From an uncultured Thermococci archaeon (lineage in GTDB: Archaea; CAYQAE01; CAYVLA01), in contig CAZJVP010000052.1 in the NCBI GenBank assembly GCA_964549615.1, forward strand, positions 1-55,502: DNA of 55,502 nucleotides, read 5' to 3'. Each line of letters starts with the position of its first letter. Positions within the stretch are counted from its first letter, which is position 1. The position numbers and the translations under genes were made by a program. Below the pieces are notes generated by a model. It was given only the letters and a program-made list of their open reading frames with translations. It was not told the origin of the DNA and did no database searches. Shown in pieces: positions 2,988-55,502 of the stretch.

Positions 2988-3015
2988 CCGCCGAATGGAA
3001 GCACAGGATGTCTGA

Positions 3016-6000: not shown

Positions 6001-6084
6001 TTCCGGGAGGTCGCCCATGGTTATACCGAGGCGCAGGCCCGCAGGGAAGCGTCGCGGTGCCTCAGGTGTGATCTCGAGGTGTGA
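3016..6084 (+). CDS. NuoF/HydB-like FMN/NAD(H) subunit fused to a GltD/NfnB-like FAD-dependent oxidoreductase
   Basis: N-terminal thioredoxin-like FeS domain. NuoF motifs: GLRGRGGAGFPTG, CNADEGDPG, GAGAFVCGEETAL, GGPSGGC, ESCGKCTPCR. GltD/NfnB motifs follow: PCQHACP...VCGRVC, GSGPAGL, WGIPAYRLP, GGGNVAVD..VYRR, GIFAGGD, EASRCLRC. Confidence 0.93.
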   Translation: MLRIPNAEALSDLARACKAEADARKASRQVLVHNGTCGIASGSKLVRSYLDEHLGEQAGIVVRDTSCCGACHQEPMITVVETDGTQIIYGDLTREKLAKIVKEHLRGGHPVRELMTDGSNPFFQKQVKRVTRLLGVIDPYDIRDYIAHDGYQALAKVLSLPREKVVEEVTRSGLRGRGGAGFPTGLKWSFAAKAQGSPKYVICNADEGDPGAYMDRAIVEGCPHSVIEGLCIAAYAIGANKGFVYIRAEYPLAVEVITNAIDQARDLGLFGENILGSGFNFDIEVCLGAGAFVCGEETALIASIEGKRGSPRPRPPFPANQGLYGKPTVINNVKTLANIPLIFLHGADWFASLGTEKSKGTVIFSLTGKVRRSGLIEVPLGTTLGEVIFDIGGGVSAGKRFKAVQLGGPSGGCIPGKYLNTPIDYADIEALGAIMGSGGMIVMDEDSCMPDMARFFMEFTKDESCGKCTPCRAGIPQMLGILDKVTSGRAELEDLQVLEELGKMVKECSLCGLGQTAPNPVLSTLRHFRDEYVAHIIDYRCPAAVCQPLFTAPCQHACPLGNDIPSIMALVKEGRYEDAYLLLRQRNPLPSVCGRVCVRYCEGKCRRSQIDEHLSINHLLRFVADYAIEKGIEYVPEIKEKKKQKVAIVGSGPAGLSAAYDLALNGYGVTVFEATSKPGGMMVWGIPAYRLPRAALEADLRVFRRMGIEIKLNSRVTDVESLLRQGYDAVFIASGLPRGRKMGIPGEDLDGVYEGVDFLRKLNAGEKLEVGQRVAVVGGGNVAVDAARASLRLGAEKVYIVYRRERADMPAIAEEIEAAEEEGVEIMPLTNPRRIIGSNGRVSGLECAQMSLSGFDDSCRRVPHEVEGSRILLEVDTVIEAIGQAAENDFLQGKVLTDRQGLILADERTLETNVPGIFAGGDVVTGPSTVVEAIAAGQRGAHSVMSYLRNQPIPKRVSREIPLKIEIPQGEIKDEVPEERHVKWAVCPARERRSDFREVAHGYTEAQARREASRCLRCDLEV

Positions 6085-6087
6085 AGC

Positions 6088-8070
6088 GTGTCCGGGGACG
6101 AGTTTACCGCCATCGTCGACGGAAGGCCTGTAAAGGGCACCAAGGGAGCCACCATACTCGAGCTCTGTAGGGCCAACGACATCTACATCCCCACGTTGTG
6201 CCACTTGGACGGCCTTTCGGGGAACGGGGGATGCCGGATGTGCCTGGTCGATGTGGAAGGCCAGAGGAGGCCGGTTCCCGCATGTATGACCCTGGCGGCC
6301 GAGGGCATGAAGATCGTGACCAACAGCCCGCAGCTGACAAGCTACCGGCGCATGGTCCTCGAGCTTCTCCTGAGTGAGCGTAACCACTTCTGTTTCTTCT
6401 GCGAGAAGAGCGGGGACTGCGAGCTTCAGTCCCTCTGCTACGAGTTCGGCATAGACCACCCGAGGTTTCCGGGGATGTTCCCTCCCCTAGGCCTTGACGC
6501 GACCGCCGAGGCCCTGGCAATAGACAACAACAGGTGCATCCTGTGCGGCAGGTGTGTCCGGGTATGCAACGAGATCGTGGGCAACAATACCCTAGACTTC
6601 GCAAGGCGCGGGTCAAACACGGTCATAAACGAGCCCGACCTCCTTCCTCTCGGTCAGTCCAACTGCATCCAGTGCGGTGCATGCGTCGAGGTTTGCCCGA
6701 CGGGGGCCATCTTCGGGAAGCTGAGCAGCTACAGGGGTAGAAAGGCACAGTGCATGGTGCTAAGGACCACATGTTGCGAGTGCCCGATGGCCTGCGACCT
6801 GACTGTCCATGTGCGCGACAATAACATCGTCATGATCACGGGCGGCGGGCTGCAGTCGCGGTTTGGGGGGCAGCTCTGCAAGAGGGGCCGGTTCGATCTG
6901 CTGTCCCGCAGCTACGACAGGATAGTTGCACCACGTATCGTTAGAGGCAATTCCCAGATCAAGGCCGACCTGCCTGAAGCCTTAGCCACGGCATCCAGGC
7001 TACTGCGCGAGGTCCAACGCAGGCATGGCAAGGACAGCGTGGCGGGGATCATATCGCCGCGATGCACAAACGAGGCAATCATGGCCTTCAAGGAGTTCGT
7101 CGAGAAGACGCTGAGGACCAAGAACGTGTTCATCATCGAGTCCGCATTCGGGGTCTTGAGCGACAGGATCTTGAAGGCGATGGAGAAAGAAGGTCTAGGT
7201 CGATTCTCCGAGTGCAGGACGGCAGAGCTTGCCCAAGCGGACTTGATCGTGGCGATCGGACTTGGACGGTCGGAGCCGCATCCCATCATCGCATCCAACG
7301 TAAGAAGGGCCCTCAACAAAGGCGCCCATCTGATAATCGTCGCGGGTTCAGAGAACGTCCTGTCCGCGCGCGCCAGCCTGATGATAAGCGCGGATGAGGG
7401 CAGGCTCGCACCAGTCGTGAAGACTCTGGCCAGCCTCGTCGGCGCGGCTGCCAGGGGGGACGAGCGATCCATTCAGGATACCATGCGAAAATCGTCGGAT
7501 CTCCAGCATGAGGAGATGTCCGCGTTCCTGACATACGTTCGCGGGGCGAAGAAGGTCGTGACCATCGCAGGCGGGGAGATCGAGCCCGATCCCGCCGTCC
7601 TCAAGGCCGTCGCCCTCCTGGCCGCGGCCCTGGCCAAGGCCGACAATGGACCGGTGCCCGCCATCTTCCTTCGATCAGGGGGAAATGCCAGGGGCGCCCT
7701 TGACCTACTCGGCGAGGATCTCAGAAGCCTCCCCACCGATCTTGGGAAGTTCGGCATCCGGGCGGCGTACATGTTGCTTTCCGACGAAGATCCTGGGACT
7801 GTTGATCGGATCGATCTTGCGGGGTTGGAGGCCATCGTCACCCAAGCGTCCTTCGAGTCGGATCTTACCAGCAGAGCCGACGTCGTCATCCCATCCAGGA
7901 CCTGGGCGGAGAGATCCGGCACCATGACCGACATCGATGGGGAAGTGAGGAAGATCAGCCAAGTCCTCGTCCCGCCCGATGGGGTCCGCTCGGACGAGGA
8001 GATCATCCACGAGCTGGCGCGACGCTGGGCGCAGGGTGCGCCGGACGAAAGCAAGGGAGGGATTGCTTGA
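6088..8070 (+). CDS. NuoG/HoxU/HydA-like multi-FeS subunit with a degenerate molybdopterin-oxidoreductase domain
   Basis: [2Fe-2S] (IPTLC...GGCRMC...C), NHFCFFC..C, two ferredoxin motifs (CILCGRCVRVC, CIQCGACVEVCP) and CCECPMAC...LCKRG. No FDH catalytic Cys/Sec-His motif, no H-cluster motifs and no C-terminal MGD-binding domain. Confidence 0.88.
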   Translation: MSGDEFTAIVDGRPVKGTKGATILELCRANDIYIPTLCHLDGLSGNGGCRMCLVDVEGQRRPVPACMTLAAEGMKIVTNSPQLTSYRRMVLELLLSERNHFCFFCEKSGDCELQSLCYEFGIDHPRFPGMFPPLGLDATAEALAIDNNRCILCGRCVRVCNEIVGNNTLDFARRGSNTVINEPDLLPLGQSNCIQCGACVEVCPTGAIFGKLSSYRGRKAQCMVLRTTCCECPMACDLTVHVRDNNIVMITGGGLQSRFGGQLCKRGRFDLLSRSYDRIVAPRIVRGNSQIKADLPEALATASRLLREVQRRHGKDSVAGIISPRCTNEAIMAFKEFVEKTLRTKNVFIIESAFGVLSDRILKAMEKEGLGRFSECRTAELAQADLIVAIGLGRSEPHPIIASNVRRALNKGAHLIIVAGSENVLSARASLMISADEGRLAPVVKTLASLVGAAARGDERSIQDTMRKSSDLQHEEMSAFLTYVRGAKKVVTIAGGEIEPDPAVLKAVALLAAALAKADNGPVPAIFLRSGGNARGALDLLGEDLRSLPTDLGKFGIRAAYMLLSDEDPGTVDRIDLAGLEAIVTQASFESDLTSRADVVIPSRTWAERSGTMTDIDGEVRKISQVLVPPDGVRSDEEIIHELARRWAQGAPDESKGGIA

Positions 8071-8633
8071 ACAAGGTCAGGATCGCCACCGCATGGTTAT
8101 CGGGCTGCTCGGGCTGCCACATGTCATTCCTGAACATCGACGAGGCGCTGATGGAGGTTGCGAGCAAGGTCGAGTTCGTCAGAAGCCCCCTCGTCGACGC
8201 AAAAGAGTTCAGGCCCTGCGAGGTGGCCATCGTAGAGGGCGCGGTCTCGGACACGGACAACCTCGAAACGCTAAAGTCGCTCAGAGCAAACTGCAAGATC
8301 CTCGTGGCATTGGGAGACTGCGCCGTGTTCGGAGGGATGACCTCGATGAGAAACCTCTTCGACGCCGAGGACGTCCTGAAGCGCGGATACGTCGAGACCG
8401 AGACAACCAAGGACGGGTTCGTGCCAGTGGACCCTCCCGTCCCCAGGCTTCTGGAGCAAGCGACACCGCTAAGCGCCCATGTGAAGGTCGACGTCAACAT
8501 ACCGGGATGCCCTCCCCACCCGGAGTCGATCCTGCATGTGGTCACACGCCTTCTTGAGGGAAAGGATCCCAAGCTTCCTCGGGAGCTGCTGCACTTCGAT
8601 TCCAGAATCAAGGTCAGGAGCGATGGCAAATGA
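8067..8633 (+). CDS. hoxY: [NiFe]-hydrogenase small subunit (group 3d/HoxY-like)
   Basis: WLSGCSGCHMS, VEG, GDCA and PGCPP motifs; short single-cluster form (188 aa). Confidence 0.92.
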   Translation: MNKVRIATAWLSGCSGCHMSFLNIDEALMEVASKVEFVRSPLVDAKEFRPCEVAIVEGAVSDTDNLETLKSLRANCKILVALGDCAVFGGMTSMRNLFDAEDVLKRGYVETETTKDGFVPVDPPVPRLLEQATPLSAHVKVDVNIPGCPPHPESILHVVTRLLEGKDPKLPRELLHFDSRIKVRSDGK

Positions 8634-10054
8634 CCGCAAGGGAGATCGTCATAGACCCAGTTACGCGGGTCGAGGGGCACGGCAAGATCACACTCCAGCT
8701 CGACGAGAAGGGCAATGTGTCAACTGCCAGGTTCCATGTGACGCAGTTCAGAGGATTCGAGAAGTTCTGCGAGGGGCGGCTTTTCTGGGAGATGCCCTCG
8801 ATAATGCCGAGGATTTGTGGGATCTGCAGCATAAGCCATGGCCTTGCATCCGCCAAGGCGTGCGACGCTATACTGGGGATTGAGATAACCGAGACCGCCA
8901 GGAAGCTGAGGGAACTCTTGCAGGCCGGCGAACTGATACAGTCCCATGCCCTACATTTCTTCTACCTGGCGGCTCCCGACCTGCTCTTCGGCATGGATGC
9001 CGACCCGCAGCACAGAAACGTTCTTCGCGTGATCGACGAGCGTCCCGACCTTGCCAGGATGGGGATAGGACTGAGGAGGTTCGGCCAGACCATATTCGAG
9101 AGGTTGAGCGGAGCCAGGATACACATCGACTACCCAATTCCCGGAGGAGTTAGCGGGGCCTTGAGCGCAAAGGATCGTGACTATCTGCTGGCCCACGTCA
9201 GGGAGCAGCTGGGGGCAGCGCAGACCGGCTTGGACCTTGCTCGGGATTACATTGAGAAAGGAGGCATAGAGGTAGAACGGTTCTCCAAGTTCCCGTCAAA
9301 GTATATGGGGCTTGTCGACGAAGAAGGAAACCTCGAGGTCTACGACGGGAGCCTCCGGCTCAAGTCCGCTGATGGCGAGGTGTTGGAGGAGGTTCCCTCA
9401 CAACGGTACGCTTCCATCATCAGCGAAGGAGTCGAGAGCTGGTCATACCTGAAATTCCCCTACTACTCGAAGGAGTCCTTTGCGGGCGGGATGTACAGGG
9501 TCGGCCCATTGGGCCGGCTGAACGTCTGCGACGGGATCGATACCCCCCTTGCAAAGGAGGCTGCCAAGGAGTTTAAACGCGTCGGCGGCAGCCGGCCAGT
9601 CCACTCGACAATGTTCTACCACTGGGCAAGGATGATCGAGCTGCTGCACTTCGTGGAGAAAGCCCAGCAGATCCTGGAGGATGAATCGATCTGCAGCACC
9701 GACATCGTCCGATCGTGCCATCCCCAGAACACCGAGGGAGTTGGGGTCACCGAGGCTCCCAGGGGTACCCTGATACATCACTACTACACCAACGAGAAGG
9801 GGGTGATCACCCGCGTCAACCTGATCGTTGCGACGGGCCACAACAACCTTGCCATGAACAGGTCATTGACGGAGGTGGCCAAGCAACACGTTCACGGAGG
9901 CAAGATCTCCGAGGGAACCCTCAACAGGTTCGAAGCGGCGATCCGCTGCTACGATCCCTGCCTTTCGTGCTCGACCCACACAGTGGGTCAGATGCCTCTA
10001 GTCGTTGAGGTCATGTCCGCCGATGGCGAGCTGGTTGGGACGTACTGCAGGTAG
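8630..10054 (+). CDS. hoxH: [NiFe]-hydrogenase large subunit (group 3d/HoxH-like)
   Basis: TRVEGHG, L1 RICGICSISH, EAPRGTLIHHY and L2 YDPCLSCSTH followed by a C-terminal extension. Confidence 0.95.
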   Translation: MTAREIVIDPVTRVEGHGKITLQLDEKGNVSTARFHVTQFRGFEKFCEGRLFWEMPSIMPRICGICSISHGLASAKACDAILGIEITETARKLRELLQAGELIQSHALHFFYLAAPDLLFGMDADPQHRNVLRVIDERPDLARMGIGLRRFGQTIFERLSGARIHIDYPIPGGVSGALSAKDRDYLLAHVREQLGAAQTGLDLARDYIEKGGIEVERFSKFPSKYMGLVDEEGNLEVYDGSLRLKSADGEVLEEVPSQRYASIISEGVESWSYLKFPYYSKESFAGGMYRVGPLGRLNVCDGIDTPLAKEAAKEFKRVGGSRPVHSTMFYHWARMIELLHFVEKAQQILEDESICSTDIVRSCHPQNTEGVGVTEAPRGTLIHHYYTNEKGVITRVNLIVATGHNNLAMNRSLTEVAKQHVHGGKISEGTLNRFEAAIRCYDPCLSCSTHTVGQMPLVVEVMSADGELVGTYCR

Positions 10055-15938: not shown

Positions 15939-17231
15939 CTAGATCAGATCCCCTAGGACCGCATCCGTCACCTCAAGCAACGAGCGTTCAAGGCCGGGTC
16001 CGAATCCGAGGCTCCTAGCTACCCCGACCTCGTATCCCCCCTCCGAGAATGCCCGGTCGGTTGGCAAGTAACCGAGGTAGTCGTTGGCCAGCTCGACAAC
16101 GACGGCCTTGATTCCCCGGGACTTGGCACGCGACTTGATCTTCAGGCCCGTCTCGACAAAAACCTCGCCCGGCAGTCCGATCAAAGCAATGTCGCCGACC
16201 CTGATTCCCTGGACCTCGGCTCTTGCGAAGCCCTCCTTCGCGTAGGCGAGAGCCCTCTTGGCAAACGAGAGCTCCAACCCTGCTTTGTAGAGCTGCTCGG
16301 GGAGGCCCCCGCTTTTCTCCAATACCGGTAGATTCCGCTCAAGCTCGGCTATGCGCCGGCAGATCTCTGCCTCGGAGACGGCTGGCTGGACGGTTATCTC
16401 GAGTTCCTCGGATGCGAAACGAAGCTCTGGCTCTCTGAGGACACGGGCTTTCGAGAGAACGCACTGGGCAGCTGAGGCTAGGCTTTGGCCCAAACTCATC
16501 GCCTCAGAGAACGTTCCCCCCGACCTGTCGTAGACGTCGCCGCCCGCTTCGAGCCTAGCTCTCAGGCTGCGTGTGAAGGGGTTTACGTCCCCGCATGCAC
16601 CGTTGGTGAAGAGACATATTCCGCCGCTTCTTCTCTCCATCGCTCGCATGGCGTACCCTGGATAGTCGGCGGAGACCAGGTAGTTGTCAGGCCCTAGGAC
16701 GACGGCGTGGCACGAGAAGTTCAGGAGATGCGTCGTGTTCCCATCCCTTGATCTCCACCTTACTGCTACGAGCTCTGGGTCTAGCGGGCCCCCTTTGGGG
16801 TCTCGCCGATTTATGGTCAGCCCCTCGGTGATGCAGGAACCGAAGGCAAACCTCGCCTCTGCCATGCTGGAAGCGGCCCGCGTCAACGTCCTGCATATCG
16901 CAGACGACATCTCCGTCATCCAGGTCCCCATCCTCCCGTAGCCGAGGTCTGGCACTGGGCCGGAGTGGGTGTGGAAAGCGCATACCATGATGTTGTTGGC
17001 TGGGTATCCAAGCCTTCCCGCGGCCTCTCGCACCGCGGTGGTCGTCTCGGGCGTCACGCCTATCAGGTCGCACGAGACAATCCCGCCCCTGGTCTTGCCG
17101 TCGTCAAGAAGGAGTACGCGCGCATTGAGATGATCGTGGATGCCCGTCGAGAAGGAGGATCGCGTCGAATACCCAGCCAGGGGCGACCCCACGGGAGGCG
17201 TGATGCGGACCTTGCTTGCGCCTACCTTCAT
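15939..17231 (-). CDS. Neutral/alkaline ceramidase-like amidohydrolase (paralog A)
   Basis: ITPPVG..LAGY, HTHSGP, NFSCH, SADYPG, NGACGDVNP, LPGEVF and GYLPTDRAFSEGGYE. Confidence 0.8.
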   Translation of the reverse strand: MKVGASKVRITPPVGSPLAGYSTRSSFSTGIHDHLNARVLLLDDGKTRGGIVSCDLIGVTPETTTAVREAAGRLGYPANNIMVCAFHTHSGPVPDLGYGRMGTWMTEMSSAICRTLTRAASSMAEARFAFGSCITEGLTINRRDPKGGPLDPELVAVRWRSRDGNTTHLLNFSCHAVVLGPDNYLVSADYPGYAMRAMERRSGGICLFTNGACGDVNPFTRSLRARLEAGGDVYDRSGGTFSEAMSLGQSLASAAQCVLSKARVLREPELRFASEELEITVQPAVSEAEICRRIAELERNLPVLEKSGGLPEQLYKAGLELSFAKRALAYAKEGFARAEVQGIRVGDIALIGLPGEVFVETGLKIKSRAKSRGIKAVVVELANDYLGYLPTDRAFSEGGYEVGVARSLGFGPGLERSLLEVTDAVLGDLI

Positions 17232-17421: not shown

Positions 17422-18750
17422 TTGGACGAAGGGCTTCTGGCGGGCACGGCCCGGGTCGACATAACCCCGAAGGTGGGCTCGGAGCTCATAGGGTACTTCC
17501 AGCCCAGGGTATCGACGGGCGTCGCTGCTCCACTGTACGCGACGTCCGCGGTCATCTCTTCGGGGCGAAGAACGGTCGCCCTCGTTTCATGTGACCTGAT
17601 AGGACTGCCTCGGATCTGGGTTGATGAGGCCAAGCGCCTGGTCTACGACAGGACCGGTCTTCCACCCGACGCGGTGATGATAGCCTGCACGCACACCCAC
17701 ACAGGCCCCTGCACAACCAGCATATTCTCCTCCAATGCCGATGAGGACTACCTATCCCGCCTGCCGGGTCTGATCGAAAGGTGCGTGGCGGGTGCCCATG
17801 CAGGGATGCAGCCCGCAACCCTCAGGACGGCAAGGGATAGTGAGGCTTCCCTGGTCTTCAACAGGCGCTTCAGGATGAAGGACGGATCGGTCAGGACCAA
17901 CCCCGGGGTGCGAAACCCGGAGGTCGTCGAGCCGGCCGGCCCCGTCGACCCCGAGATCCTGGCCATCATCATCCGAGATTCCAGGGACAAGATCATGGGC
18001 TGCATCTTCAACTATTCAAACCACGTCGATGTCATAGGCGGAACGATGATCAGTCCCGACTATCCGGGGATGCTCGCTGAGCTTTTCAGAAAGCGCTTCG
18101 GCCCCTCCTCCAACCTCATCTACCTCAACGGCGCTTGCGGCGACGTCAACCACATCAACATCCGCGGCGCGCGGACCCAAGGGGGACCCTCCCAGGCAAG
18201 AATGATGGCGAGCATGCTCTTCAGGGATCTCCTCGATATGGTCAGGAAGAACGGGCCCTGGTCTCAGCCCGACGTGGGGGGACTTTCCAAGAGGGTCAAG
18301 CTCCCGGTCCGCAGGGTTCGCTCGGCCGATCTTGATCGCGCGATGACCATCCTTCAAGGGGAGAGTGGTTGGGGGACGGATGTCGTTTTCGCCCGCGAGA
18401 TCGTGCATCTGTCGCATGACCGCCGACGTTCCATCGATACTGTCGTCCAAGCGATCAACATCGGGGAAACCGTGTTCGTCGGCATCCCGGGCGAACCATT
18501 CGTCGAGATTGGACTAAGGCTGAAGGTCGGATCCCCATTCGAATATACAGCGATAGCGGAGCTTGCCAACGACTACGTAGGGTATCTGCCGACCGACAGG
18601 GCGTTTCAGGAGGGCGGCTATGAAACAACGCTGGCCCGCTCTAGCCGGGTTGGTCCAGGAACCGAGGCCATCTTGCTAGAGGCCGCTCAGGATCTCGCAC
18701 GCAAGCTTCGCAGCAAGAGACAAGCGCGGGGAATGCAGCGTGGCGGCTGA
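17422..18750 (+). CDS. Neutral/alkaline ceramidase-like amidohydrolase (paralog B)
   Basis: DITPKVG..LIGY, THTHTGP, NYSNH, SPDYPG, NGACGDVNH, IPGEPF and GYLPTDRAFQEGGYE. Confidence 0.8.
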   Translation: MDEGLLAGTARVDITPKVGSELIGYFQPRVSTGVAAPLYATSAVISSGRRTVALVSCDLIGLPRIWVDEAKRLVYDRTGLPPDAVMIACTHTHTGPCTTSIFSSNADEDYLSRLPGLIERCVAGAHAGMQPATLRTARDSEASLVFNRRFRMKDGSVRTNPGVRNPEVVEPAGPVDPEILAIIIRDSRDKIMGCIFNYSNHVDVIGGTMISPDYPGMLAELFRKRFGPSSNLIYLNGACGDVNHINIRGARTQGGPSQARMMASMLFRDLLDMVRKNGPWSQPDVGGLSKRVKLPVRRVRSADLDRAMTILQGESGWGTDVVFAREIVHLSHDRRRSIDTVVQAINIGETVFVGIPGEPFVEIGLRLKVGSPFEYTAIAELANDYVGYLPTDRAFQEGGYETTLARSSRVGPGTEAILLEAAQDLARKLRSKRQARGMQRGG

Positions 18751-20614
18751 AGATTGGCCCCTTTGGCCAACGAAGCCGATGTTGGCGCGGACTGCAGCCC
18801 GGGCATTCTCGAACCCCGAATGGCTTTTCGAGATCAAGTGGGACGGCGTCAGATGCCTCTTGCACCTTTACTCGGGGAAGATCAGGCTCCAATCCAGGAG
18901 TCTTAGGGACATCACCTGGACTTACCCCGAGTTCACGGATCTTTCCCGCGCGATCAGTGCACGTCTGGCCGTGATCGACGGAGAGATCGTCGCCCTTGAT
19001 GCACGCGGCAAGCCGTCCTTCAGGCTTTTGCAGGGCAGGATCAACCTTACCTCGGAATCCGAGATCAAGAGATTTGCGGCGAGAACCCCGGCAACGATCT
19101 ACGCGTTCGACCTCCTGTACTTGGATGGCCGGATCCTGATGAATGAGAGACTTGACGAAAGGAAGCGCCTTCTGCGGAAGATCCTGGTGGATTCGCCTCG
19201 GCTCAAGTACTCCGACCATATCGAGGCTGACGGAGAGGCCTGCTTTTCGGCTGCCAAGGCCATGGGGATCGAGGGCATCATGGCGAAAAGGAAAGACAGC
19301 CGATACGAACCCGGAGAAAGATCCGGCAACTGGCTGAAGATACGCATCGAGACGAGGGACGACTTCGTCATAGGCGGTTGGACCCCGGGGAAGAGGGGCA
19401 GAAGCCGGTTCTTCGGTGCCTTGCTGCTGGGCCAATACCAAGCCGGCAAGCTCCGCTATGTGGGAAAAGTTGGGACAGGTTTTGACGGGAGGCAGTTGGC
19501 CGAGATCCGCAAGAGCTTGGACGACCTGTCGACGGACGCTCGGCCCTTCGCCGACGACCCCAAGCAACCGGATGCCCGTTGGGCTGTGCCGCGCATGGTA
19601 TGCGAGGTGAGGTTCTCGGGAAGGTCGGACGGCGCCATCAGATTCCCAGTCTTCTTGGGCCTCCGCCCGGACAAGGAGGCAAGAGACGTCCTGCTACCGG
19701 TCGAGCCATCGGTCGAGCCCCCGGAGCGGGTCTCAACGAGGGGACGGGTATCGGTATCCAACCCGGACAAGGTTTTCTGGCCGGCGGCGGGCCACACGAA
19801 GGCCGACCTCTTCGACTACTATATGAAGGTGGCCGACGCAATCCTTCCCCATCTCAGGGATAGGCCCCTGACGTTGTACAGGCAGCCCGATGGCATCGCC
19901 GGCGAGAGCTTCTTCCAGAGAAACCGCCCTGCCTCGGCGCCGGAATGGATAGTATCCAAGCAGATCGAGGGCGACCAGCACGCCGGCGTCGATTCGATAC
20001 TCTGCCAAGATGCCGAGACCCTGGCGTGGCTGGCAAACATGGGCTGCATAGAGCTGCACCCCTGGCTGTCCAGATGGAATCAGCCGGACAGGCCCGACTT
20101 CGTGGTGTTCGACATCGACCCGGTTGCCCCGGCCGGGTACCGCGATGCTTGCAGGGTTGCTCTCCTGTTGAGGGACACCCTGTCGGATGTCGGATTCCGC
20201 ACATACGTGAAGACCTCCGGCAAGCGCGGCCTCCATGTCTACCTTCCGATAAAGAATGAGCTGACTTACGAACAGACCCGATCCTTCGCGGCCCGGGTGG
20301 GCGAACACCTTGCATCCGATCTTGGAGACCGCTTCACGATGAGCCGAAGACCGAATGACAAGGAGGGAAAGGTATTCTTGGACCCAGCGCAGAATGGCTG
20401 GGGCAGGACGCTTGCATCGGCCTACAGCCTCCGTTCAACGCCGGGCGCCACCGTCTCAACCCCGATAACATGGGACGAGTGCGAGTCCTGTGTCGACCCT
20501 GGCAACTTCAACATAAGGTCTGTACCGGAGCGCCTGGAAAAGATCGGGGATCCTTGGGAGCGCATGGCCAGGGATGCGCAACCCGTCCGCCGAATTCTCG
20601 GGCTGGAAGAGTAG
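18740..20614 (+). CDS. ligD: NHEJ DNA ligase D (ATP-dependent ligase plus primase-polymerase domain)
   Basis: EIKWDGVR adenylation motif, IDGEI, FDLL, EGIMAK, WLKI and OB-fold GKVGTGF. Then SNPDKVFWP, RQPDG, IELHPW, VFDIDP, KTSGKRGLH and AYSLR (LigD Pol). Confidence 0.92.
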   Translation: MAAEDWPLWPTKPMLARTAARAFSNPEWLFEIKWDGVRCLLHLYSGKIRLQSRSLRDITWTYPEFTDLSRAISARLAVIDGEIVALDARGKPSFRLLQGRINLTSESEIKRFAARTPATIYAFDLLYLDGRILMNERLDERKRLLRKILVDSPRLKYSDHIEADGEACFSAAKAMGIEGIMAKRKDSRYEPGERSGNWLKIRIETRDDFVIGGWTPGKRGRSRFFGALLLGQYQAGKLRYVGKVGTGFDGRQLAEIRKSLDDLSTDARPFADDPKQPDARWAVPRMVCEVRFSGRSDGAIRFPVFLGLRPDKEARDVLLPVEPSVEPPERVSTRGRVSVSNPDKVFWPAAGHTKADLFDYYMKVADAILPHLRDRPLTLYRQPDGIAGESFFQRNRPASAPEWIVSKQIEGDQHAGVDSILCQDAETLAWLANMGCIELHPWLSRWNQPDRPDFVVFDIDPVAPAGYRDACRVALLLRDTLSDVGFRTYVKTSGKRGLHVYLPIKNELTYEQTRSFAARVGEHLASDLGDRFTMSRRPNDKEGKVFLDPAQNGWGRTLASAYSLRSTPGATVSTPITWDECESCVDPGNFNIRSVPERLEKIGDPWERMARDAQPVRRILGLEE

Positions 20615-38703: not shown

Positions 38704-39893
38704 TCAGCCAGCCCGTATGTCCTTGGTCGGCCTCATCTCTTTGTAGAGGCGACGCCTCACCATAACCAGCCACAGAACCGATCCACAGAGGATGAAGGTC
38801 GCGGTGACCGCGCACCATTCGACGACGAACATCCAAAGGGTAGCCGCGTTTCTTACCTTGATGGCTTCGGCGATCGCCGTGTCACAGAAGTCCAACACCT
38901 CTGCATAGGCCTCCAGTGCCTGCTCCATTTCACAACCCACATAGAGCTTCGCCGCCCTTCTCTTCTTCTGCTCGATGTCTGCAGCCAACTTGGTCAGGCC
39001 AAGGCTGCTGCCGCCCATCCTTTCAACGAACTCGACCATGTTGTAGAACGTGGTCAACGCTAGGTCTGCGTCCCTCATCCGCCGCCTAACGACGTAGACG
39101 CTGTCGATGTCGTCAGGCAGACTGCGGCCCGCCAAGAAGAGCATCATATTGATCGCGTAGTCCCCGTAGTACTTCCACCGCATGAAGATGCTCCCGCCAG
39201 CTGGCGTCCAATCGGCGGACTGGACCAAGGTTCTTCCCTTGCCAATGTCCCACCACATGAGAAACGGCCCTTGGCCAAATGCGCCCTGGTCGAGCACGGC
39301 CAACAGTTTGGCCGCGGTTCTAGGCTTGATGTTGCAGCTCCTGTAGAAGAGGCCGCAGTTCTCCAGCCTATCGAAAGGCAAACTCCTGATGAACTCATCC
39401 TCCCAATCCACGATCTTGATCCTGCCGCTGGGCCGATCGGGCGGGGAGCTAACTATGTCGCACGGCAGGACATCGGCGACGCTTGTTGGTTCCCAAGAAG
39501 GGTAGGCTCCTCCCCCTGCGAAGCTCTCTGCGCCCCGATCATGACCAAGCCAAGCCCTCCTTCCACGACGCCGCTGCTCATCCACAGGAAGTGCTCGTTG
39601 CGGAACACCTCCCTGTTCGCATCGCTGAGCACGACCACATCGTTCTCGAGGAATTTCGAGTAACTCCTAGGCATGTAGCTCCTCATGCTCTTCCTTATGA
39701 TGTCGGGGCCTGCGCCGACCGTACACGCGTATACGGCGGAGCAGTCGAGGAGAGGGTCCCCTTTGAGCAGGGGGAAGGGATTGGGACCCCCCACGGCATC
39801 CCCTATGTACAACACCCTGATCCTTCCGGTCACAGGGTCCGCCCTTACCTCGCGGGCCTCAGCTGCTGAAGAGGCAAGCAAGACCGCCAGCAA
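38704..39893 (-). pseudogene. Paralog 3 of the secreted membrane-anchored family, split by a frameshift at about 39535
   Basis: ORF 39453..39893 (…RSYMPR…GGLGLVMIG) and ORF 38704..39585 (GAESFAGG…EWCAVTA…VRRRLY) join if the C4 run at 39533-39536 were C5. This may be a sequencing error rather than a true pseudogene. Confidence 0.7.
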
Positions 39894-52047: not shown

Positions 52048-53409
52048 CTAAGCAGCGGAAAGGGAACCTTGGAGAAGGCTCGTCGTCTCGCGGCTCAGAG
52101 ACAGGGCCTCCTTCTTCGTCTTCGCTTCGCATATCACCCTAACTATGGGCTCGGTCCCTGACTTCCTAACGTACACCCAACTCGAGTCCCTGATGACGCG
52201 GATTCCATCCGTGAGGTCGATCCTCTCACCCTTGAAGTGTTCCTTGACCAAGTCCAGCAGCTGCTTGGATCGAGACGGATCGCACGGTATGTTCTTCTTT
52301 ATCATGTAGTACCTCGGCAGCCTCTCGGCCAGAGCGCTCAGCTTACCCCCGAAGTGGCAGAGCCCCTCAAGTATGAGCGCCGTGGCCGCCGGGCCATCCC
52401 TCGCGTACTGGACGGCGGGATTTATCACCCCCCCGTTCCCCTCGCCTCCCAGGACTGCCCCGGTCTGGATCATCTTCTCAACGACGTTCACCTCTCCAAC
52501 GGCGGACCTGAGGAGCGGACAGCCTCGCCTCGTCGCGACGTCCTCCACGGCCTTGGTGGTTGCGACGTTGGTCACGACGGGCCCTGGCCTGTGCTCCAGG
52601 ACGAACTCCGCCGCAAGGACCACGGAGTACTCCTCTCCCAGGGCGATCCCCTTTTCGGTCACCACCGATATGCGGTCCCCGTCAGGGTCGGTGGCGAATC
52701 CCAGATCAGCCCCGGTCTCGACCACCTTTCTGCAGAGATCCTTGAGGCTGCCCGCGGTTGGCTCCGGCCCTCTCGGGAACGTCCCATTCATTTCGCAGTT
52801 GAGCGGTATTGTCTCGCATCCGAGTCTGTTCAGCAGGATCTTCATGATCTCGGATGGAGCACTATTGCAGCAGTCCACCACCACTGCGGGCGCCGTGCTT
52901 GATATCGCTTCCACATCGATCGTCCGAAGAATGTGCTCTACGTGCTCACTGGCTGCACCCGAGTGGGTGAGCACCTCGCCAAGCCTTTCCCACGGAAGGT
53001 AACGGATGCTCTTGCTTCTGTAGATGTGGACGAGCTTGCTGCTCTGTTCCTTGTTGAGGAACACGCCGGAGGGCCCTATGAATTTCATGGCGTTCCAGTT
53101 GATCGGGTTGTGCGAGGCTGTGATCGCCACGCCGCCGCTGGCGTTGTGCCGCTTCACGTTGAATTGGATGGTCGGCGTCGTCACGATCCCGAGGTCGATC
53201 ACACGGCATCCGACCGCCGTCAGACCAGCCGTCACCGCCTCCCTCATCATCAGGCCCGATCGACGGGCGTCCCTCCCGATCACGACGGTCCCGCCCTTGC
53301 AGTAGGTGCCGAAGGCCGCCGAAAACCTTGCGACAACGTCCGGTGTGAGCGTGTCGCCGATAACTCCCCGCACGCCGGATACGCCAATCATCAGGGAAGT
53401 CACGAGCAA
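52048..53409 (-). CDS. Phosphoglucomutase/phosphomannomutase/phosphoglucosamine mutase
   Basis: SGVRG, GRDAR, ITASHNP (phospho-Ser), DPDGDR, GEGNGG and RKSGTEP. Confidence 0.93.
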   Translation of the reverse strand: MLVTSLMIGVSGVRGVIGDTLTPDVVARFSAAFGTYCKGGTVVIGRDARRSGLMMREAVTAGLTAVGCRVIDLGIVTTPTIQFNVKRHNASGGVAITASHNPINWNAMKFIGPSGVFLNKEQSSKLVHIYRSKSIRYLPWERLGEVLTHSGAASEHVEHILRTIDVEAISSTAPAVVVDCCNSAPSEIMKILLNRLGCETIPLNCEMNGTFPRGPEPTAGSLKDLCRKVVETGADLGFATDPDGDRISVVTEKGIALGEEYSVVLAAEFVLEHRPGPVVTNVATTKAVEDVATRRGCPLLRSAVGEVNVVEKMIQTGAVLGGEGNGGVINPAVQYARDGPAATALILEGLCHFGGKLSALAERLPRYYMIKKNIPCDPSRSKQLLDLVKEHFKGERIDLTDGIRVIRDSSWVYVRKSGTEPIVRVICEAKTKKEALSLSRETTSLLQGSLSAA

Positions 53410-53519: not shown

Positions 53520-54194
53520 TTATCGCATTCCTAGCACGGAGGGAAGCTCCAGCAGTGACCGAACGACCGCCTGTGCGCCCCGACCCAAAAGCTCCTCCTC
53601 GGATGGGGTGGGTAGTCGTTCCGTGAATCTCAGAACCGCTATTCCCTTAAAGCCGGCCGCCAGGGCCGTCTCCATGTCGGTGGGGTCGTCTCCCACGTAG
53701 AACGCATCCCGGCAGCCGAGCTCCTGGCCGCAACCGAGAAGCCTGTCCGGCGCGGGCTTGCATCTCCCCGGGCTTTCCCTACCCCAGACTGCCTCGAGGA
53801 ACCTACCGATGCGAAGCCTGCGCGCCGTTGCGCGTATGACCCGGACCGAGTTTGAGCTCACTACGCCGATCCTGAACTCGTTCTCCGAAAGCTCCGACAA
53901 CACCTGCCTTGCCCCTTGGAGAAGGGTTGCCCTCTTGAGGGCCTCGAACTCGCCTGCGGCCATGGACTGGTCCAGAAGCCGCTTGATGCGTTCCCTATCG
54001 GGGTCGCCCGCCAAATCCCGGTCGACGATCCTTCGATAGGCCGCGAAGGAGCTCTCGTTGCTTCGAACGAGGCCCTCGAGACCTAGGGCCTCGCAGGCGT
54101 GGAGCAGGTGGCGCATCATCACCTGCCTGTCGAGCTTCAAATCTGCAAGCGTAAGGTCGTAATCGAAAATTGCACATCTGGGCCCCATTGCCAT
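53520..54194 (-). CDS. HAD-superfamily hydrolase
   Basis: FDYDLTL, VSSN, KPAPD and YVGDDPTD. Confidence 0.85.
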   Translation of the reverse strand: MAMGPRCAIFDYDLTLADLKLDRQVMMRHLLHACEALGLEGLVRSNESSFAAYRRIVDRDLAGDPDRERIKRLLDQSMAAGEFEALKRATLLQGARQVLSELSENEFRIGVVSSNSVRVIRATARRLRIGRFLEAVWGRESPGRCKPAPDRLLGCGQELGCRDAFYVGDDPTDMETALAAGFKGIAVLRFTERLPTPSEEELLGRGAQAVVRSLLELPSVLGMR

Positions 54195-54485
54195 GCGGAG
54201 GCCTTCACGGGAGCCAATAAAATGGATCACCCTTTTGGCATCTGGCCCCGCCTAGGTTCGCGACCGACGTCTCCACAATCGACCTCGTGCGGCGGAATCC
54301 GGTTTGCCCGGAATTCCGGGACTTCGAGCCGAGAAGGTCGCACCTAAGATATTTTAGTCCGAGCGATCAGCTTGGTTTCAGATCAGACTCACGATTTGGC
54401 TCCAATCGTTGCAAAGGTCGTCGCGTGAGCAGAGGCTTGAGTCGTAAGGAGACCGAAATGGTGAGTTCTTAAACTGTGATGACCA

Positions 54486-54917
54486 TTGACCTCCAAAGAG
54501 ATAGTCTCGGCCGGGGGAGTTGTCTACCGGACGATGGGCGATAACGTGTTCTTCGTGCTGGTCGGGCGAAGACGGGGGAACTACTGGTGCCTGCCCAAGG
54601 GTAGGGTTGAGGAGAATGAGACCGAGGTGGAAGCCGCCAAGAGAGAAGTATTCGAGGAGACCGGAATCGGCGAGGTGGAGGTCGGAGAGAAGATCGGCAC
54701 CATTTGCTATGCGTTCTACCGCAGATCCGCCGAGACGTCCTATCAGAAACTGGTCCATTTCTACCTCATGAAGGCCAAGTCGAGCAATCTAAATGTGGGG
54801 ACGGAGTTCGACCGGGCCATGTGGTTCCCAGCAAGGGATGCCCTGAACATGGTCACGCACAGGAAGGAGAAGGAGATCGTCGCGAAGGCCATGCAGATGC
54901 TTGGCCTCCCAGTCTGA
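54486..54917 (+). CDS. NUDIX hydrolase (Ap4A hydrolase-like)
   Basis: SAGGVV and the Nudix box WCLPKGRVEENETEVEAAKREVFEETG. Confidence 0.9.
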   Translation: MTSKEIVSAGGVVYRTMGDNVFFVLVGRRRGNYWCLPKGRVEENETEVEAAKREVFEETGIGEVEVGEKIGTICYAFYRRSAETSYQKLVHFYLMKAKSSNLNVGTEFDRAMWFPARDALNMVTHRKEKEIVAKAMQMLGLPV

Positions 54918-54926
54918 GGCATTGCG

Positions 54927-55307
54927 ATGCGGGCTCCCTTGGTCCTTGGAATTGGCACGGACCTGGTCGAGGTCGACCGCCTGAAGCGAGCGTGGGATCG
55001 AACCGGCGAACGTTTCCTCGAAAAGATCTTCACCCAGAAAGAATTGGCATACTGCAGGGCTTTTAGCGATCCATGGCCGCATCTTGCGGCGCGATTTGCC
55101 GCCAAGGAGAGCGTCATGAAAGCACTGGGATTCTACGTCAACCCGTTGGATATTGAGATCGTCAGATGCGGCAGCGGCGCCCCCCGCGTGGCGCTCCATG
55201 GCTCTGCGCGAGCACGCGCGCATAGGAAGGGGGTTGGCGAGCTGAAGGTCACGCTCTCCCATGCCGGCCGTTTGGCGATCGCGCAATCGATTGCGGTGGG
55301 CCGCTAG
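54927..55307 (+). CDS. acpS: Holo-[acyl-carrier-protein] synthase (AcpS-type 4'-phosphopantetheinyl transferase)
   Basis: GIGTDLVEVDR, F.EKIFT..E, LAARFAAKES.MKALG, G.P and VTLSH. Confidence 0.93.
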   Translation: MRAPLVLGIGTDLVEVDRLKRAWDRTGERFLEKIFTQKELAYCRAFSDPWPHLAARFAAKESVMKALGFYVNPLDIEIVRCGSGAPRVALHGSARARAHRKGVGELKVTLSHAGRLAIAQSIAVGR

Positions 55308-55308
55308 C

Positions 55309-55502
55309 CTACCGCCTTTTTTCCCTGAGCCCCTTCTCCTCGAGCCTTCGCTTCACGTACTCTATGGTCTTGCCAACGGTCGTGTTCTTCTCGGCGTCCT
55401 CCAAGGGAATCTCGATGTCGAACTCCTCTTCGGATGCAGCCACCAGCTCGATCGTGTCTATGCTTTCCACACCGAAATCCTCGACGAACCTTGAGTCCAT
55501 CG
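55309..55502 (-). CDS. acpP: Acyl carrier protein (5' end probably outside the window)
   Basis: [16 protein letters not shown]...[22 protein letters not shown] matches ACP helices II-IV, with the phosphopantetheine Ser retained. Helix I is missing at the window edge. Confidence 0.85.

Follow-up and report, generated by a model that had tools for sequence, protein, structure and literature searches.

In textbooks, acyl carrier protein (ACP) and holo-[acyl-carrier-protein] synthase (AcpS) stand for fatty-acid synthesis of the bacterial type, and that archaea almost entirely lack them is one of the arguments for the 'lipid divide'. Acyl groups are also handled on ACP by LpxA and LpxD, the trimeric LbH enzymes of lipid A synthesis that move an acyl group from ACP to a (UDP-)glucosamine derivative, LpxD having a non-catalytic N-terminal nucleotide-binding domain, and by PlsX, an acyl-ACP:phosphate transacylase of the Pta/Ptb superfamily. 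The archaeal enzyme ST0452 of Sulfolobus tokodaii (Arch_glmU, TIGR03992; PDB 2GGO, 5Z09 and 5Z0A) has, to our knowledge, no ACP requirement. E. coli GlmU, on the other hand, was described as binding ACP, with a Km of 20 µM for acetyl-ACP versus 400 µM for acetyl-CoA, the acetyl-ACP being supplied by malonyl-ACP decarboxylase (MadA/MadB), which is restricted to Proteobacteria (Whaley et al., 2021, J Biol Chem, PMC8666670). Sporadic cases of archaeal ACP, ACP synthase and MCAT acquired from bacteria were also reported (Lombard et al., 2012, reviewed in PMC3533463), and the ACP passages of that review do not mention a link to pta, ack or a GlmU-like gene.

We analysed a window (the whole stretch of DNA, 55,502 nt) that is the entire contig C52 of genome G000, from an uncultured hot-spring archaeon, and that ends inside an ACP gene adjacent to acpS. 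The pair recalls the cases of Lombard et al. (2012; PMC3533463) in that an archaeal ACP and an ACP synthase were probably received by horizontal transfer from bacteria, and differs from them in that no MCAT (FabD) accompanies ACP/AcpS in G000. [quoted passage not shown] As for E. coli GlmU, the likeness would reside in a LbH amino-sugar-1-phosphate N-acetyltransferase that takes acetyl from acetyl-ACP, a role that we infer for the archaeal counterpart; in the description of PMC8666670 the E. coli enzyme uses the housekeeping AcpP and Mad, whereas the archaeal module has a dedicated adjacent ACP, no FAS, and Pta/Ack or ACD. The two enzymes also belong to different families, the archaeal one being TIGR03991 and scoring only 18.9 bits on TIGR01173.

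The AcpS and ACP genes and the contig that carries them

The window contig is archaeal, since it encodes the alpha and beta subunits of the proteasome, aTrm56, TFIIE-alpha, prefoldin, L18Ae, eIF6, L31e, S19e, SRP54 and FtsY. At its right end (Table 1) we recovered the bacterial-type pair that the original prediction had placed in an archaeal chromosome, namely an intact AcpS and a convergent ACP, the latter with a GVESID motif and a basic C-terminal tail, and the stop codons of the two genes (55305–55307 and 55309–55311) are, as claimed, 1 nt apart.

Table 1. Features at the right end of the window, with positions on the window and supporting matches.
Feature	Position	Strand	Remarks
Archaeal-type phosphoglucosamine mutase GlmM (GlcN-6-P to GlcN-1-P)	52048..53409	-	TIGR03990 520.8 vs cut-off 439
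HAD-family phosphatase	53520..54230	-	PF13419 67.3 bits
NUDIX hydrolase	54486..54917	+	PF00293 66.9 bits; 9 nt upstream of AcpS, same strand
AcpS, holo-[acyl-carrier-protein] synthase, group I phosphopantetheinyl transferase, 126 aa	54927..55307	+	Intact ORF
3' portion of the ACP gene, 63 codons out of about 86	55309..55502	-	PF00550 35.2 bits

AcpS, the sole ACPS match in G000, exceeds the cut-offs of its family models (PF01648, 62 bits, cut-off 25; TIGR00516, 71.2, cut-off 59.8; TIGR00556, 80.7, cut-off 45.35). Residues D12, E61 and K65 are invariant in an alignment of four archaeal sequences, and we take them to correspond to the Mg/CoA-binding D8, E58 and K62 of B. subtilis AcpS, matched through the GIGxD and KE..K motifs and not through a structural alignment. 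The NUDIX hydrolase gene, probably co-transcribed with acpS, was found paired with it again in G001, G003 and the metagenome contigs L112–L117. The HAD-family phosphatase is likewise a conserved neighbour in the archaeal block, with synteny in L112–L117, and GlmM is syntenic in G001, G003, L112, L114, L115 and L116.

The ACP gene runs past the end of the window, so that its match covers only profile positions 21–67 of PF00550, and the ATG at 55500 codes for an internal Met and is not the start codon. The missing 5' part was found at the end of contig C18 (77721–77801); the ends of the two contigs have 14 bases in common, in frame, and the frame read across the join agrees with the complete orthologs in G001 and G003. 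A sequence bridging the C18–C52 break was sought in Logan contigs and none was found there, the contig of the probable source run stopping at 55497 and two other hot-spring runs yielding at this place only pieces of 150–420 nt. Nevertheless, the mixed order of archaeal and bacterial-type genes is kept on single contigs in G001 (128 kb) and G003 (34 kb) and is also unbroken in L112, L114 and L116, and the GC content of the block (0.55–0.61) matches that of the genome (0.60). A chimeric join with a bacterial contig, the danger named together with the original prediction, is thus ruled out by single-contig synteny and GC.

The full-length archaeal ACPs pass TIGR00517, the AcpP equivalog (cut-off 70.45), with 89.7–90.8 bits in G003 and 82.7 in G001, and the copy of G000, truncated by the contig break, reaches 64.9. 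Their best PDB matches are FAS ACPs (70–77 bits). The attachment residue, Ser36, is invariant in the 34 ACPs aligned; the residue that precedes it is Glu in all five archaeal rows and in 23 of the 24 bacterial GlmU-linked rows (28/29 overall) and Asp in five of five housekeeping AcpPs, so that the Asp-Ser-Leu attachment motif of the AcpP type is not the one that the archaeal ACPs carry. In a sample of 401 archaeal genomes TIGR00517 was passed in two, to which the cut copy of the window has to be added, and all three ACPs belong to one family.

Within this archaeal family both genes are under purifying selection (dN/dS of 0.06–0.37 for AcpS and 0.08–0.19 for ACP), and they are intact and conserved without a fatty-acid synthase. 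FabD (PF00698), FabA/Z (PF07977) and PlsX (PF02504) were found in none of five genomes of the phylum, which are 91–100% complete, at E ≤ 0.001, the Pta ortholog of G001 giving only a 21.5-bit match to PF02504, and the matches to ketosynthase PF00109 (25–33 bits) are due to an archaeal thiolase that scores 616 bits as thiolase. The type II FAS partners that would go with an AcpP-type protein (FabD, FabH/F/B, FabZ/A) are therefore missing from the same genome. ACP, AcpS and Ack co-occur: G000, G001 and G003 have all three, and searches of G002 and G004 found none of them. G000 has a single PP-binding (carrier protein) match, and one carrier domain leaves no room for PKS or NRPS: an NRPS/PKS client for ACP was considered and set aside, as it would need more than one such domain, and so was lipoate or biotin synthesis, which would need FAS.

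The genes upstream of ACP

The original prediction placed the partner genes of ACP beyond the window end, upstream of ACP, and that is where we found them, on C18. Their identity is another one: where fab/KAS, acyl-AMP ligase or aminotransferase genes had been proposed, there are instead pta, ack and a gene for a GlmU-like hexapeptide (LbH) acetyltransferase (TIGR03991). The four genes pta-ack-GlmU-like-ACP are tightly coupled, with 4-nt overlaps (that of pta and ack among them) and one 5-nt gap, and the operon is met convergently from the window side by NUDIX-AcpS, with GlmM and NagB in the flanks. Neighbours of this kind suggest that acetyl groups are transferred in amino-sugar metabolism. 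The fatty-acyl, lipid-modifying or secondary-metabolite pathway of the original prediction is unlikely, since the FAS partners (FabD, FabA/Z and PlsX) are missing, only a thiolase stands for the ketosynthase, and the carrier protein is a single one.

Pta is borderline-canonical, with 343.7 bits on NF007233 (cut-off 310) and 312.2 on TIGR00651 (cut-off 311.2), and Ack is well above its cut-off (TIGR00016, 504.9 versus 293.4). When Pta is compared with that of M. thermophila, R87 and S309-R310 are kept and R133 is replaced by Lys; we take these to be the CoA-binding and catalytic residues of the M. thermophila enzyme, and, because they are kept or conservatively changed, the cluster Pta looks like an ordinary CoA enzyme. 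A specialised, ACP-adapted Pta was considered on the same residues and found unsupported. The comparison with PlsX is of interest here, as a Pta-like fold can move acyl groups between phosphate and the ACP thiol, which is the loading step needed by the model proposed below; the cluster Pta differs from PlsX in its borderline-canonical score, and G000 has no PlsX. An acetyl-CoA:ACP transacylase was not identified either.

The GlmU-like protein matches TIGR03991 (alt_bact_glmU) with 335.7 bits (cut-off 225.3) over positions 1–394 of 394, and remains far below the cut-offs of the GlmU models (TIGR01173, cut-off 366.85; TIGR03992, 89.9 versus 292.1). TIGR03991/PF13562 (NTP_transf_4) is an uncharacterised 'hypothetical equivalog' family; on PF13562 the orthologs of G003 and G001 score 73.9 and 63.7 bits, respectively. 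The structure model (pLDDT 97.1) has ST0452 as best match, with a TM of 0.58–0.61, and the likeness extends to the LbH domain (111–114 bits), of which profile positions 207–356 align with ST0452 residues 242–393 (111.8 bits). His308 of ST0452, presumably the catalytic His, is matched in the alignment by the invariant His of the family, which is H266 in G003. Nevertheless, identity is about 20% and the GlmU-like enzyme has an extra three-helix C-terminal extension. Its N-terminal domain keeps the fold and lacks the nucleotidyltransferase signature GxGxR...K: in place of the loop of ST0452 (LAAGSGERL / RPK) the family consensus has an acidic FEDE-type stretch and RP-, in an alignment that scores 0.2 bits only in the N-terminal part and is anchored by the P-x-T-x-x-R-P motif. 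Because of this N-terminal domain without GxGxR...K, the enzyme is predicted not to be a full GlmU. G000 also encodes a regular archaeal GlmU (Arch_glmU) elsewhere, as well as an ACD, and the module is therefore dispensable for plain UDP-GlcNAc or acetyl-CoA synthesis. In G002 an ACP-less copy of the GlmU-like family adjoins the biosynthetic glmS.

Distribution and origin of the GlmU-like/ACP pairing

The pairing is not limited to archaea. In 46 of 64 usable metagenome loci (those with at least 500 nt downstream of the GlmU-like gene), mostly bacterial, this gene is followed on the same strand by ACP within 700 nt, and in three further loci ACP lies at 2.2–2.3 kb. On the GlmU-like tree one clade (SH-aLRT 98) contains 62 rows with room for an ACP, of which 47 show one and 15 have none adjacent, versus none of 19 outside this clade. 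Members of the family outside the ACP-linked clade function without an adjacent ACP. TIGR03991 itself is very large: of 8,000 candidates that were scored, at least 6,923 cluster representatives reach E ≤ 1e-40. A fusion of the GlmU-like protein to ACP was looked for among the best 120 homologs listed (292–442 aa), of which none has PF00550, and a longer match of 756 aa lacks it as well.

The partner enzymes change from locus to locus, and all of them act on acetyl thioesters. With near-duplicates (>92% identical) dropped, 47 loci remain, and in these we counted Pta in 8, Ack in 7, ADP-forming acetyl-CoA synthetase in 6 and a homocitrate/isopropylmalate-synthase-like enzyme in 16. The commonest neighbour of the GlmU-like gene is NagB (25/47), a bacterial cluster copy of which is an equivalog-level deaminase (TIGR00502, 326 bits versus a cut-off of 237), and no NagA over the cut-off was found in four of four family genomes. 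In five of five Planctomycetota genomes checked, the linked ACP is an additional paralog: a housekeeping AcpP, which scores higher and has the DSLD motif, is encoded elsewhere. The GlmU-linked ACP is thus a dedicated one that exists beside the housekeeping AcpP, as indicated by the separate location of the latter and by ES versus DS at the attachment site.

The archaeal GlmU-like genes nest among bacterial ones on the tree, and the module therefore probably entered the archaeal lineage from bacteria by transfer. It may not have moved as one unit: on a small ACP tree the archaeal ACPs lie outside the bacterial linked-ACP clade, a 95% branch placing them with the housekeeping copies, and among the 80 closest AcpS loci of bacteria there is none that has the module beside it (a weak ACP match occurs 5.5 kb off in one) or shows the adjacent convergent AcpS/ACP arrangement. 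The nearest bacterial AcpS is at most 51% identical.

Proposed function and alternative explanations

We hypothesize, at about even chances, that ACP and AcpS are part of a bacterial-type module that moves acetyl groups to amino sugars and does not serve lipid synthesis. AcpS would attach phosphopantetheine to Ser36 of ACP; Ack and Pta would activate acetyl from acetate and ATP, a task taken in other lineages by ADP-forming acetyl-CoA synthetase; the activated acetyl group would end on the ACP thiol; and the LbH domain of the GlmU-like enzyme would move it from acetyl-ACP to an amino-sugar phosphate, regenerating holo-ACP. The acceptor would most likely be GlcN-1-P, formed by NagB and GlmM. 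With such steps and an acetyl-transfer gene set, ACP would serve sugar N-acetylation, and the two genes would be kept without fatty-acid synthesis genes because they belong to a borrowed, widespread and most likely acetyl-carrying module. A more specific form of the proposal seems to us possible but doubtful, namely a carrier-based acetyl shuttle that bypasses free acetyl-CoA, in which Pta or ADP-forming acetyl-CoA synthetase loads the ES-type ACP directly and the GlmU-like enzyme, its nucleotidyltransferase site lost, N-acetylates the amino-sugar phosphate from acetyl-ACP only.

An ACP that carries no acyl load could be retained for a regulatory or structural role: as holo-ACP it might, for instance, be a subunit that adjusts the activity of the GlmU-like enzyme, or it might signal the CoA/acetyl-CoA status. 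ACP plays such a part for other proteins outside FAS, and it is described as binding many of them, such as SpoT and the ISC machinery (PMC3340395; PMC13343975), and Pta looks CoA-competent, so the gene set would not require an acetyl-ACP pool; but the retention of AcpS under purifying selection and the invariant attachment Ser argue that the thiol arm of ACP matters, and the partner enzymes all handle acetyl thioesters, which leaves this role rather unlikely. The pathway could also run in the catabolic direction, with the GlmU-like enzyme moving acetyl from an N-acetyl amino-sugar phosphate to ACP, Pta/Ack or ACD making ATP from it, and NagB deaminating the product. ATP formation is the usual task of Pta/Ack and ACD in fermenters, NagB is the commonest neighbour and of deaminase type, and NagA over the cut-off is lacking in the family genomes. 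Going from amide to thioester is, however, uphill by roughly 20 kJ/mol or more, as we estimate from textbook values, the ACP-less family member of G002 lies beside a biosynthetic gene, and the E. coli precedent, in what PMC8666670 describes, runs synthetically; we consider this direction unlikely.

It is decidedly unlikely that ACP delivers a non-acetyl group (propionyl, butyryl, hydroxyacyl or longer) to the amino sugar, in an LpxA/LpxD-like manner, for an N-acyl sugar of a glycolipid or surface glycan. The LbH fold with its C-terminal helical extension would suit such a role, acyl-ACP-dependent LbH enzymes do exist in LpxA and LpxD, and the Ack model bears the name 'acetate/propionate family kinase'. 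Yet LpxA and LpxD use long hydroxyacyl chains made by FAS and the archaeon is without a source of longer acyl-ACP, the LbH domain is nearest to that of the acetyltransferase ST0452 (114 bits), and the 28 PDB sequences matched at E ≤ 0.001 include no chain of LpxA or LpxD. That ACP and AcpS serve fatty-acyl, lipid-modifying or polyketide/secondary-metabolite synthesis is very improbable: ACP is indeed very near FAS-type AcpP by its TIGR00517 and PDB scores, and the archaeal ACPs group on the small tree with housekeeping AcpPs and not with the linked paralogs, but the FAS enzymes sought are missing from the genomes of the phylum, the ketosynthase-like match is a thiolase, and the lone carrier domain has Pta, Ack and a sugar acetyltransferase as operon partners. 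An artefact or a relic, that is, a chimeric assembly or transferred genes fallen out of use, is barely conceivable; the split of the ACP gene at a contig end, where the Logan contig stops too, is opposed by the same junctions on five other single contigs, by the fitting GC, by the dN/dS values and by the distance of the nearest bacterial AcpS.

Our search of the literature found no paper on the module among the titles listed and none on TIGR03991/PF13562 (NTP_transf_4, alt_bact_glmU), and none of the terms sought occurs in the main text of the Brockarchaeota paper (PMC8065059). The GlmU-like/ACP module is widespread and, as far as we could find, undescribed: the association of an uncharacterised and very large family with a dedicated ACP and with enzymes of acetate activation is conserved. 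Combined with the preference of E. coli GlmU for acetyl-ACP, the pairing gives a testable hypothesis of an undescribed route of amino-sugar acetylation, and it calls into question the automatic name 'GlmU' on thousands of genes. As none of the three archaeal genomes of our sample that carry ACP has a fatty-acid synthase, an archaeal ACP must not be counted as evidence for fatty-acid synthesis. Should the acetyl shuttle be true, it would answer the question, left open in PMC8666670, of where GlmU obtains acetyl-ACP in organisms other than Proteobacteria. It would provide a private acetyl pool for envelope or glycan synthesis in many bacterial phyla, moved into several archaeal lineages, and the FAS-free archaeon would be a natural proof of a core function of an AcpP-like ACP outside lipid synthesis.

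Two convergent genes at the contig end

[quoted passage not shown] The match of ACP to PF00550 is limited to profile positions 21–67, since the gene is cut by the window end. The genome contains exactly one PP-binding match and exactly one ACPS match. The surroundings are archaeal, as had also been described, with genes for proteasome alpha and beta, aTrm56, TFIIE-alpha, prefoldin, L18Ae, eIF6, L31e, S19e, SRP54 and FtsY in the window, and the closest AcpS sequences (37–51% identical) are all bacterial by record title, among the best 80 of 591 confirmed hits in the species-genome collection. Both genes are under purifying selection inside the archaeal family, with dN/dS values of 0.08–0.19 for ACP (9 of 10 pairs with finite dS) and 0.06–0.37 for AcpS (15 pairs), although synonymous sites approach saturation in most of them; in the pair with the lowest divergence the values are 0.077 and 0.172, respectively.

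The window comprises contig C52 in full. We located the first 27 codons of ACP, by tblastn with full-length orthologs, at the very end of another contig, C18, of the same assembly (104 contigs, 3.21 Mb, 99.46% complete, 2.81% contamination); the ends of the two contigs have 14 identical bases in common, in frame. Partner genes had been expected beyond the window end, upstream of ACP, and three tightly coupled genes are indeed found there, pta, ack and a GlmU-like gene, the first two junctions being 4-nt overlaps, with a 5-nt gap before ACP. We considered a chimeric join with a bacterial contig, as the Logan contig from what is probably the source run also stops inside the ACP gene (window 55497–55502, end of C18) and provides no bridge; strain variation or a repeat may have caused this break. 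Despite this, such a join is excluded, because two relatives, G001 and G003, have the same gene order on single contigs, as do six metagenome contigs of the family (L112–L117), and because the GC content of the block (0.55–0.61) equals that of the genome (0.60).

Features of the window, of contig C18 and of other loci (model cut-offs follow "vs")
Feature	Location	Strand	Evidence
NagB	C18, upstream of pta	divergent	
Pta	C18, upstream of ACP		NF007233 343.7 vs 310; TIGR00651 312.2 vs 311.2
Ack	C18, upstream of ACP		TIGR00016 504.9
GlmU-like, 422 aa	C18, upstream of ACP		TIGR03991 "alt_bact_glmU" 335.7 vs 225.3; PF13562 and hexapeptide repeats
ACP	55502 down to stop 55309–55311	-	PF00550 35.2 bits
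AcpS	54927–55307	+	complete ORF, 126 aa; PF01648 62 bits; NCBIfam acpS 71.2 vs 59.8
NUDIX hydrolase	54486–54917	+	MutT1 68 vs 475
HAD phosphatase	window side, beyond NUDIX from AcpS		
Archaeal GlmM	window side, beyond HAD phosphatase		520.8 vs 439
Redox gene run	2406–10051		
Ceramidase-like	15942–17231	-	PF04734, N-terminal part, 69 bits
Ceramidase-like	17422–18747	+	PF04734, N-terminal part, 31 bits
LigD-type fusion	18740–20611	+	PF21686, 299 bits
GATase1_like	38707–39585	-	PF07090
GlmU-like copy of G002	G002:C2:129090–132030 (L108)		31–33% identity
Gene trio of G007	G007:C1 (L007 823–1839)		AcpS-like gene, 43 bits
HMGL-like, 468 aa	L162 2019–3422		126 vs 463

The NUDIX hydrolase gene, 9 nt upstream of AcpS, is kept with AcpS in all archaeal copies; its best NCBIfam match is far below the cut-off, and a role in the handling of CoA or 3',5'-ADP is possible. 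Elsewhere in the window, the redox run comprises a thioredoxin-like 2Fe-2S ferredoxin, a NiFe-hydrogenase large-subunit-like protein, a 1022-aa protein in which a NuoF-like FMN/4Fe-4S module is fused to a pyridine-nucleotide-disulphide oxidoreductase, and a NuoG/molybdopterin-like protein of 660 aa. The run resembles a bifurcating-type hydrogenase or a complex linked to NAD(P)H, and the fusion in it is unusual. Two divergently oriented ceramidase-like paralogs (neutral/alkaline type) stand in this archaeon with ether lipids. The LigD-type protein, which joins an ATP-dependent DNA ligase to a primase-polymerase domain, has the architecture of bacterial NHEJ on an archaeal contig. A GATase1_like protein is also encoded.

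A dedicated ACP paired with a GlmU-like gene

A fatty-acid synthesis role, one of those originally proposed, is not borne out: a search of the five genomes representing the archaeal phylum in the collection gave no FabD, FabA/Z or PlsX, there is one carrier domain, and the PF00109 "ketosynthase" matches (25–33 bits) correspond to a thiolase-type enzyme, the archaeal acetyl-CoA acetyltransferase (616 bits on NF053570). ACP, AcpS and Ack co-occur in G000, the genome under study, and in G001 and G003; the other two genomes of the phylum, G002 (96% complete) and G004 (98%), gave no match to any of the three. Of the 401 genomes in an archaeal sample, only G001 and G003 have an ACP that passes the AcpP model; the ACP of G000, cut by the contig end, scores 64.9 on this model. 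Matches below the threshold came from seven further genomes, in several cases within ORFs longer than 3,000 aa. This rarity agrees with the literature, since a review reports ACP, ACP synthase and MCAT only in a few unrelated archaea, acquired from bacteria (PMC3533463). In another archaeal family, three genes stand in a row in the complete 1.6-Mb genome G007: an ORF of 78 aa without Pfam matches, a gene for a MaoC-like dehydratase and one resembling AcpS. They may form a separate, divergent carrier-protein system.

Scanning of metagenome contigs with the GlmU-like alignment gave 80 loci (39–80% identity), 64 of which have at least 500 nt downstream. An AcpP-like ACP is present within 700 nt on the same strand in 46 of these 64 loci and 2.2–2.3 kb downstream in three, with none in the remaining 15; a cut ACP is seen at the edge in four of the 16 loci without room. 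Apart from L112–L117, the annotated loci have a bacterial appearance: L136 encodes PlsC, IspH and ribosomal protein S1, L132 a histidine kinase and L173 T2SS protein F. The TIGR03991 family is over the cut-off in 30 of 151 sampled Planctomycetota genomes, with ACP directly downstream in 7 of the 30 loci (plus or minus 1.5 kb), and in one of these seven, that of G061, the order pta-ack-GlmU-like-ACP is the archaeal one. In a tree of 89 full-length GlmU-like proteins (from 114 loci, less 12 ORFs that were partial or short and, in a second step, 13 near-duplicates more than 92% identical), the ACP-linked rows are all contained in a single 69-row clade (SH-aLRT 98; ACP in 47, none in 15, no room in 7), and ACP is present in 0 of the 19 rows with room outside it. 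The six archaeal rows group together (support 100) within the ACP-linked clade, and from this nesting, in an unrooted tree, we infer the direction of transfer, presumably towards the archaea.

GlmU-like copies of other archaea (24 of 401 genomes over the cut-off, mostly in one family) are 28–39% identical to that of G000, and all nine loci examined lack ACP, pta, ack and nagB within 1.5 kb. G002, which alone in its family lacks ACP, AcpS, pta and ack, has a very divergent GlmU-like copy directly downstream of glmS, the only canonical glmS in the archaeal family; this copy is placed outside the ACP-linked clade, on a long branch.

Five Planctomycetota genomes were tested, and in all five the ACP next to the GlmU-like gene (67–74.5 bits) is additional to a higher-scoring ACP with a GADSLD motif encoded elsewhere (94–112 bits). 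The attachment serine is invariant in a 34-row ACP alignment; glutamate precedes it in every archaeal or linked ACP except that of G061 (28 of 29), and aspartate in all five housekeeping ACPs, so that GVESID, instead of GxDSLD, marks the functional group of linked ACPs. VES-type ACPs were a small set in a database search (11 of 11 clusters examined among P0002–P0025), including a second clade, 59–66% identical, with one member named "Thermoproteota archaeon" by its source, whereas the hits ranked below (11 of 11 examined among P0026–P0040) are canonical GADSLD ACPs. Apart from the motif, the archaeal ACPs are closer to AcpP, and in a short ACP tree they group with the five housekeeping sequences, a 95% branch separating the bacterial linked ACPs; given this position, the block may not have moved as one piece.

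The GlmU-like enzyme and a putative acetyl-ACP route

The AlphaFold model of the GlmU-like enzyme is confident (pLDDT 97.1, pTM 0.94), and its best PDB match is ST0452, an archaeal sugar-1-phosphate nucleotidyltransferase/acetyltransferase (TM 0.58–0.61, 20% identity). The LbH domain aligns to ST0452 residues 242–393 at 111.8 bits, and a family-invariant histidine aligns with His308, the catalytic base. The N-terminal domain, whose alignment alone is not significant, keeps the fold, but LAAGSGERL...RPK is replaced by an acidic FEDE-type stretch and the lysine is missing in the family consensus. The name GlmU is, therefore, only half justified: judging from these alignments, the enzyme is likely an acetyltransferase and doubtful as a uridylyltransferase. 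G000 also carries a regular Arch_glmU (323.7 vs 292.1) and an ADP-forming acetyl-CoA synthetase (ACD) over the cut-off; NagA was not found in this genome, and no GlmS was over the cut-off (best 298 vs 418).

Neighbours were counted in the 47 ACP-linked loci left after near-duplicate removal, within the limits of each contig's length: NagB (equivalog level, 326 bits) is present in 25, Pta in 8, Ack in 7, ACD in 6 (GlmU-like-ACD-ACP in L173, GlmU-like-ACP-ACD in L174), and a homocitrate/isopropylmalate-synthase-like HMGL protein, far under all cut-offs, in 16. Four loci (L135, L136, L147 and L150) have the order NagB-pta-GlmU-like-ACP-ack, followed in L136 by a convergent AcpS and a GFO/IDH/MocA gene, as in the archaeal block. 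The main argument for ACP carrying acetyl is that non-orthologous enzymes making or using an acetyl thioester replace each other beside the same pair. In L162 and 15 further bacterial loci the HMGL-like protein is encoded directly downstream of the linked ACP; it may act as a Claisen-type enzyme on acetyl-ACP or be a Re-citrate-synthase-like enzyme.

Gene content, gene coupling, conservation and the lack of FAS are observed. As a mechanism, we propose that AcpS would produce holo-ACP, that Ack and Pta would activate acetate, and that the acetyl group would pass to the ACP thiol, from which the LbH domain would transfer it to a phosphorylated amino sugar, with GlcN-1-P supplied by NagB and GlmM as the likeliest acceptor. 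There is a precedent in the literature: E. coli GlmU binds ACP, with a Km of 20 uM for acetyl-ACP vs 400 uM for acetyl-CoA, and the supply of acetyl-ACP outside Proteobacteria is a question raised by its authors (PMC8666670). ACP loading is the weak link of the proposed mechanism, no transacylase for this step having been found in our search. Pta looks like a normal CoA enzyme: relative to M. thermophila Pta, R87 and S309-R310 are kept and K replaces R133, these being residues with CoA-binding and catalytic roles in that enzyme. PlsX illustrates that the Pta fold can act on ACP thioesters, a precedent for such loading by analogy only.

No paper on the module was found among the openly accessible main texts covered. 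Pta-Ack of archaeal MAGs has been published in the context of acetogenesis or of the use of acetate, and ACP is not mentioned there ("acyl carrier", 0 occurrences; PMC10321748). The lineage in which this ACP would deliver acetyl groups to an amino-sugar phosphate is a tiny phylum, represented by only five species genomes in the collection.
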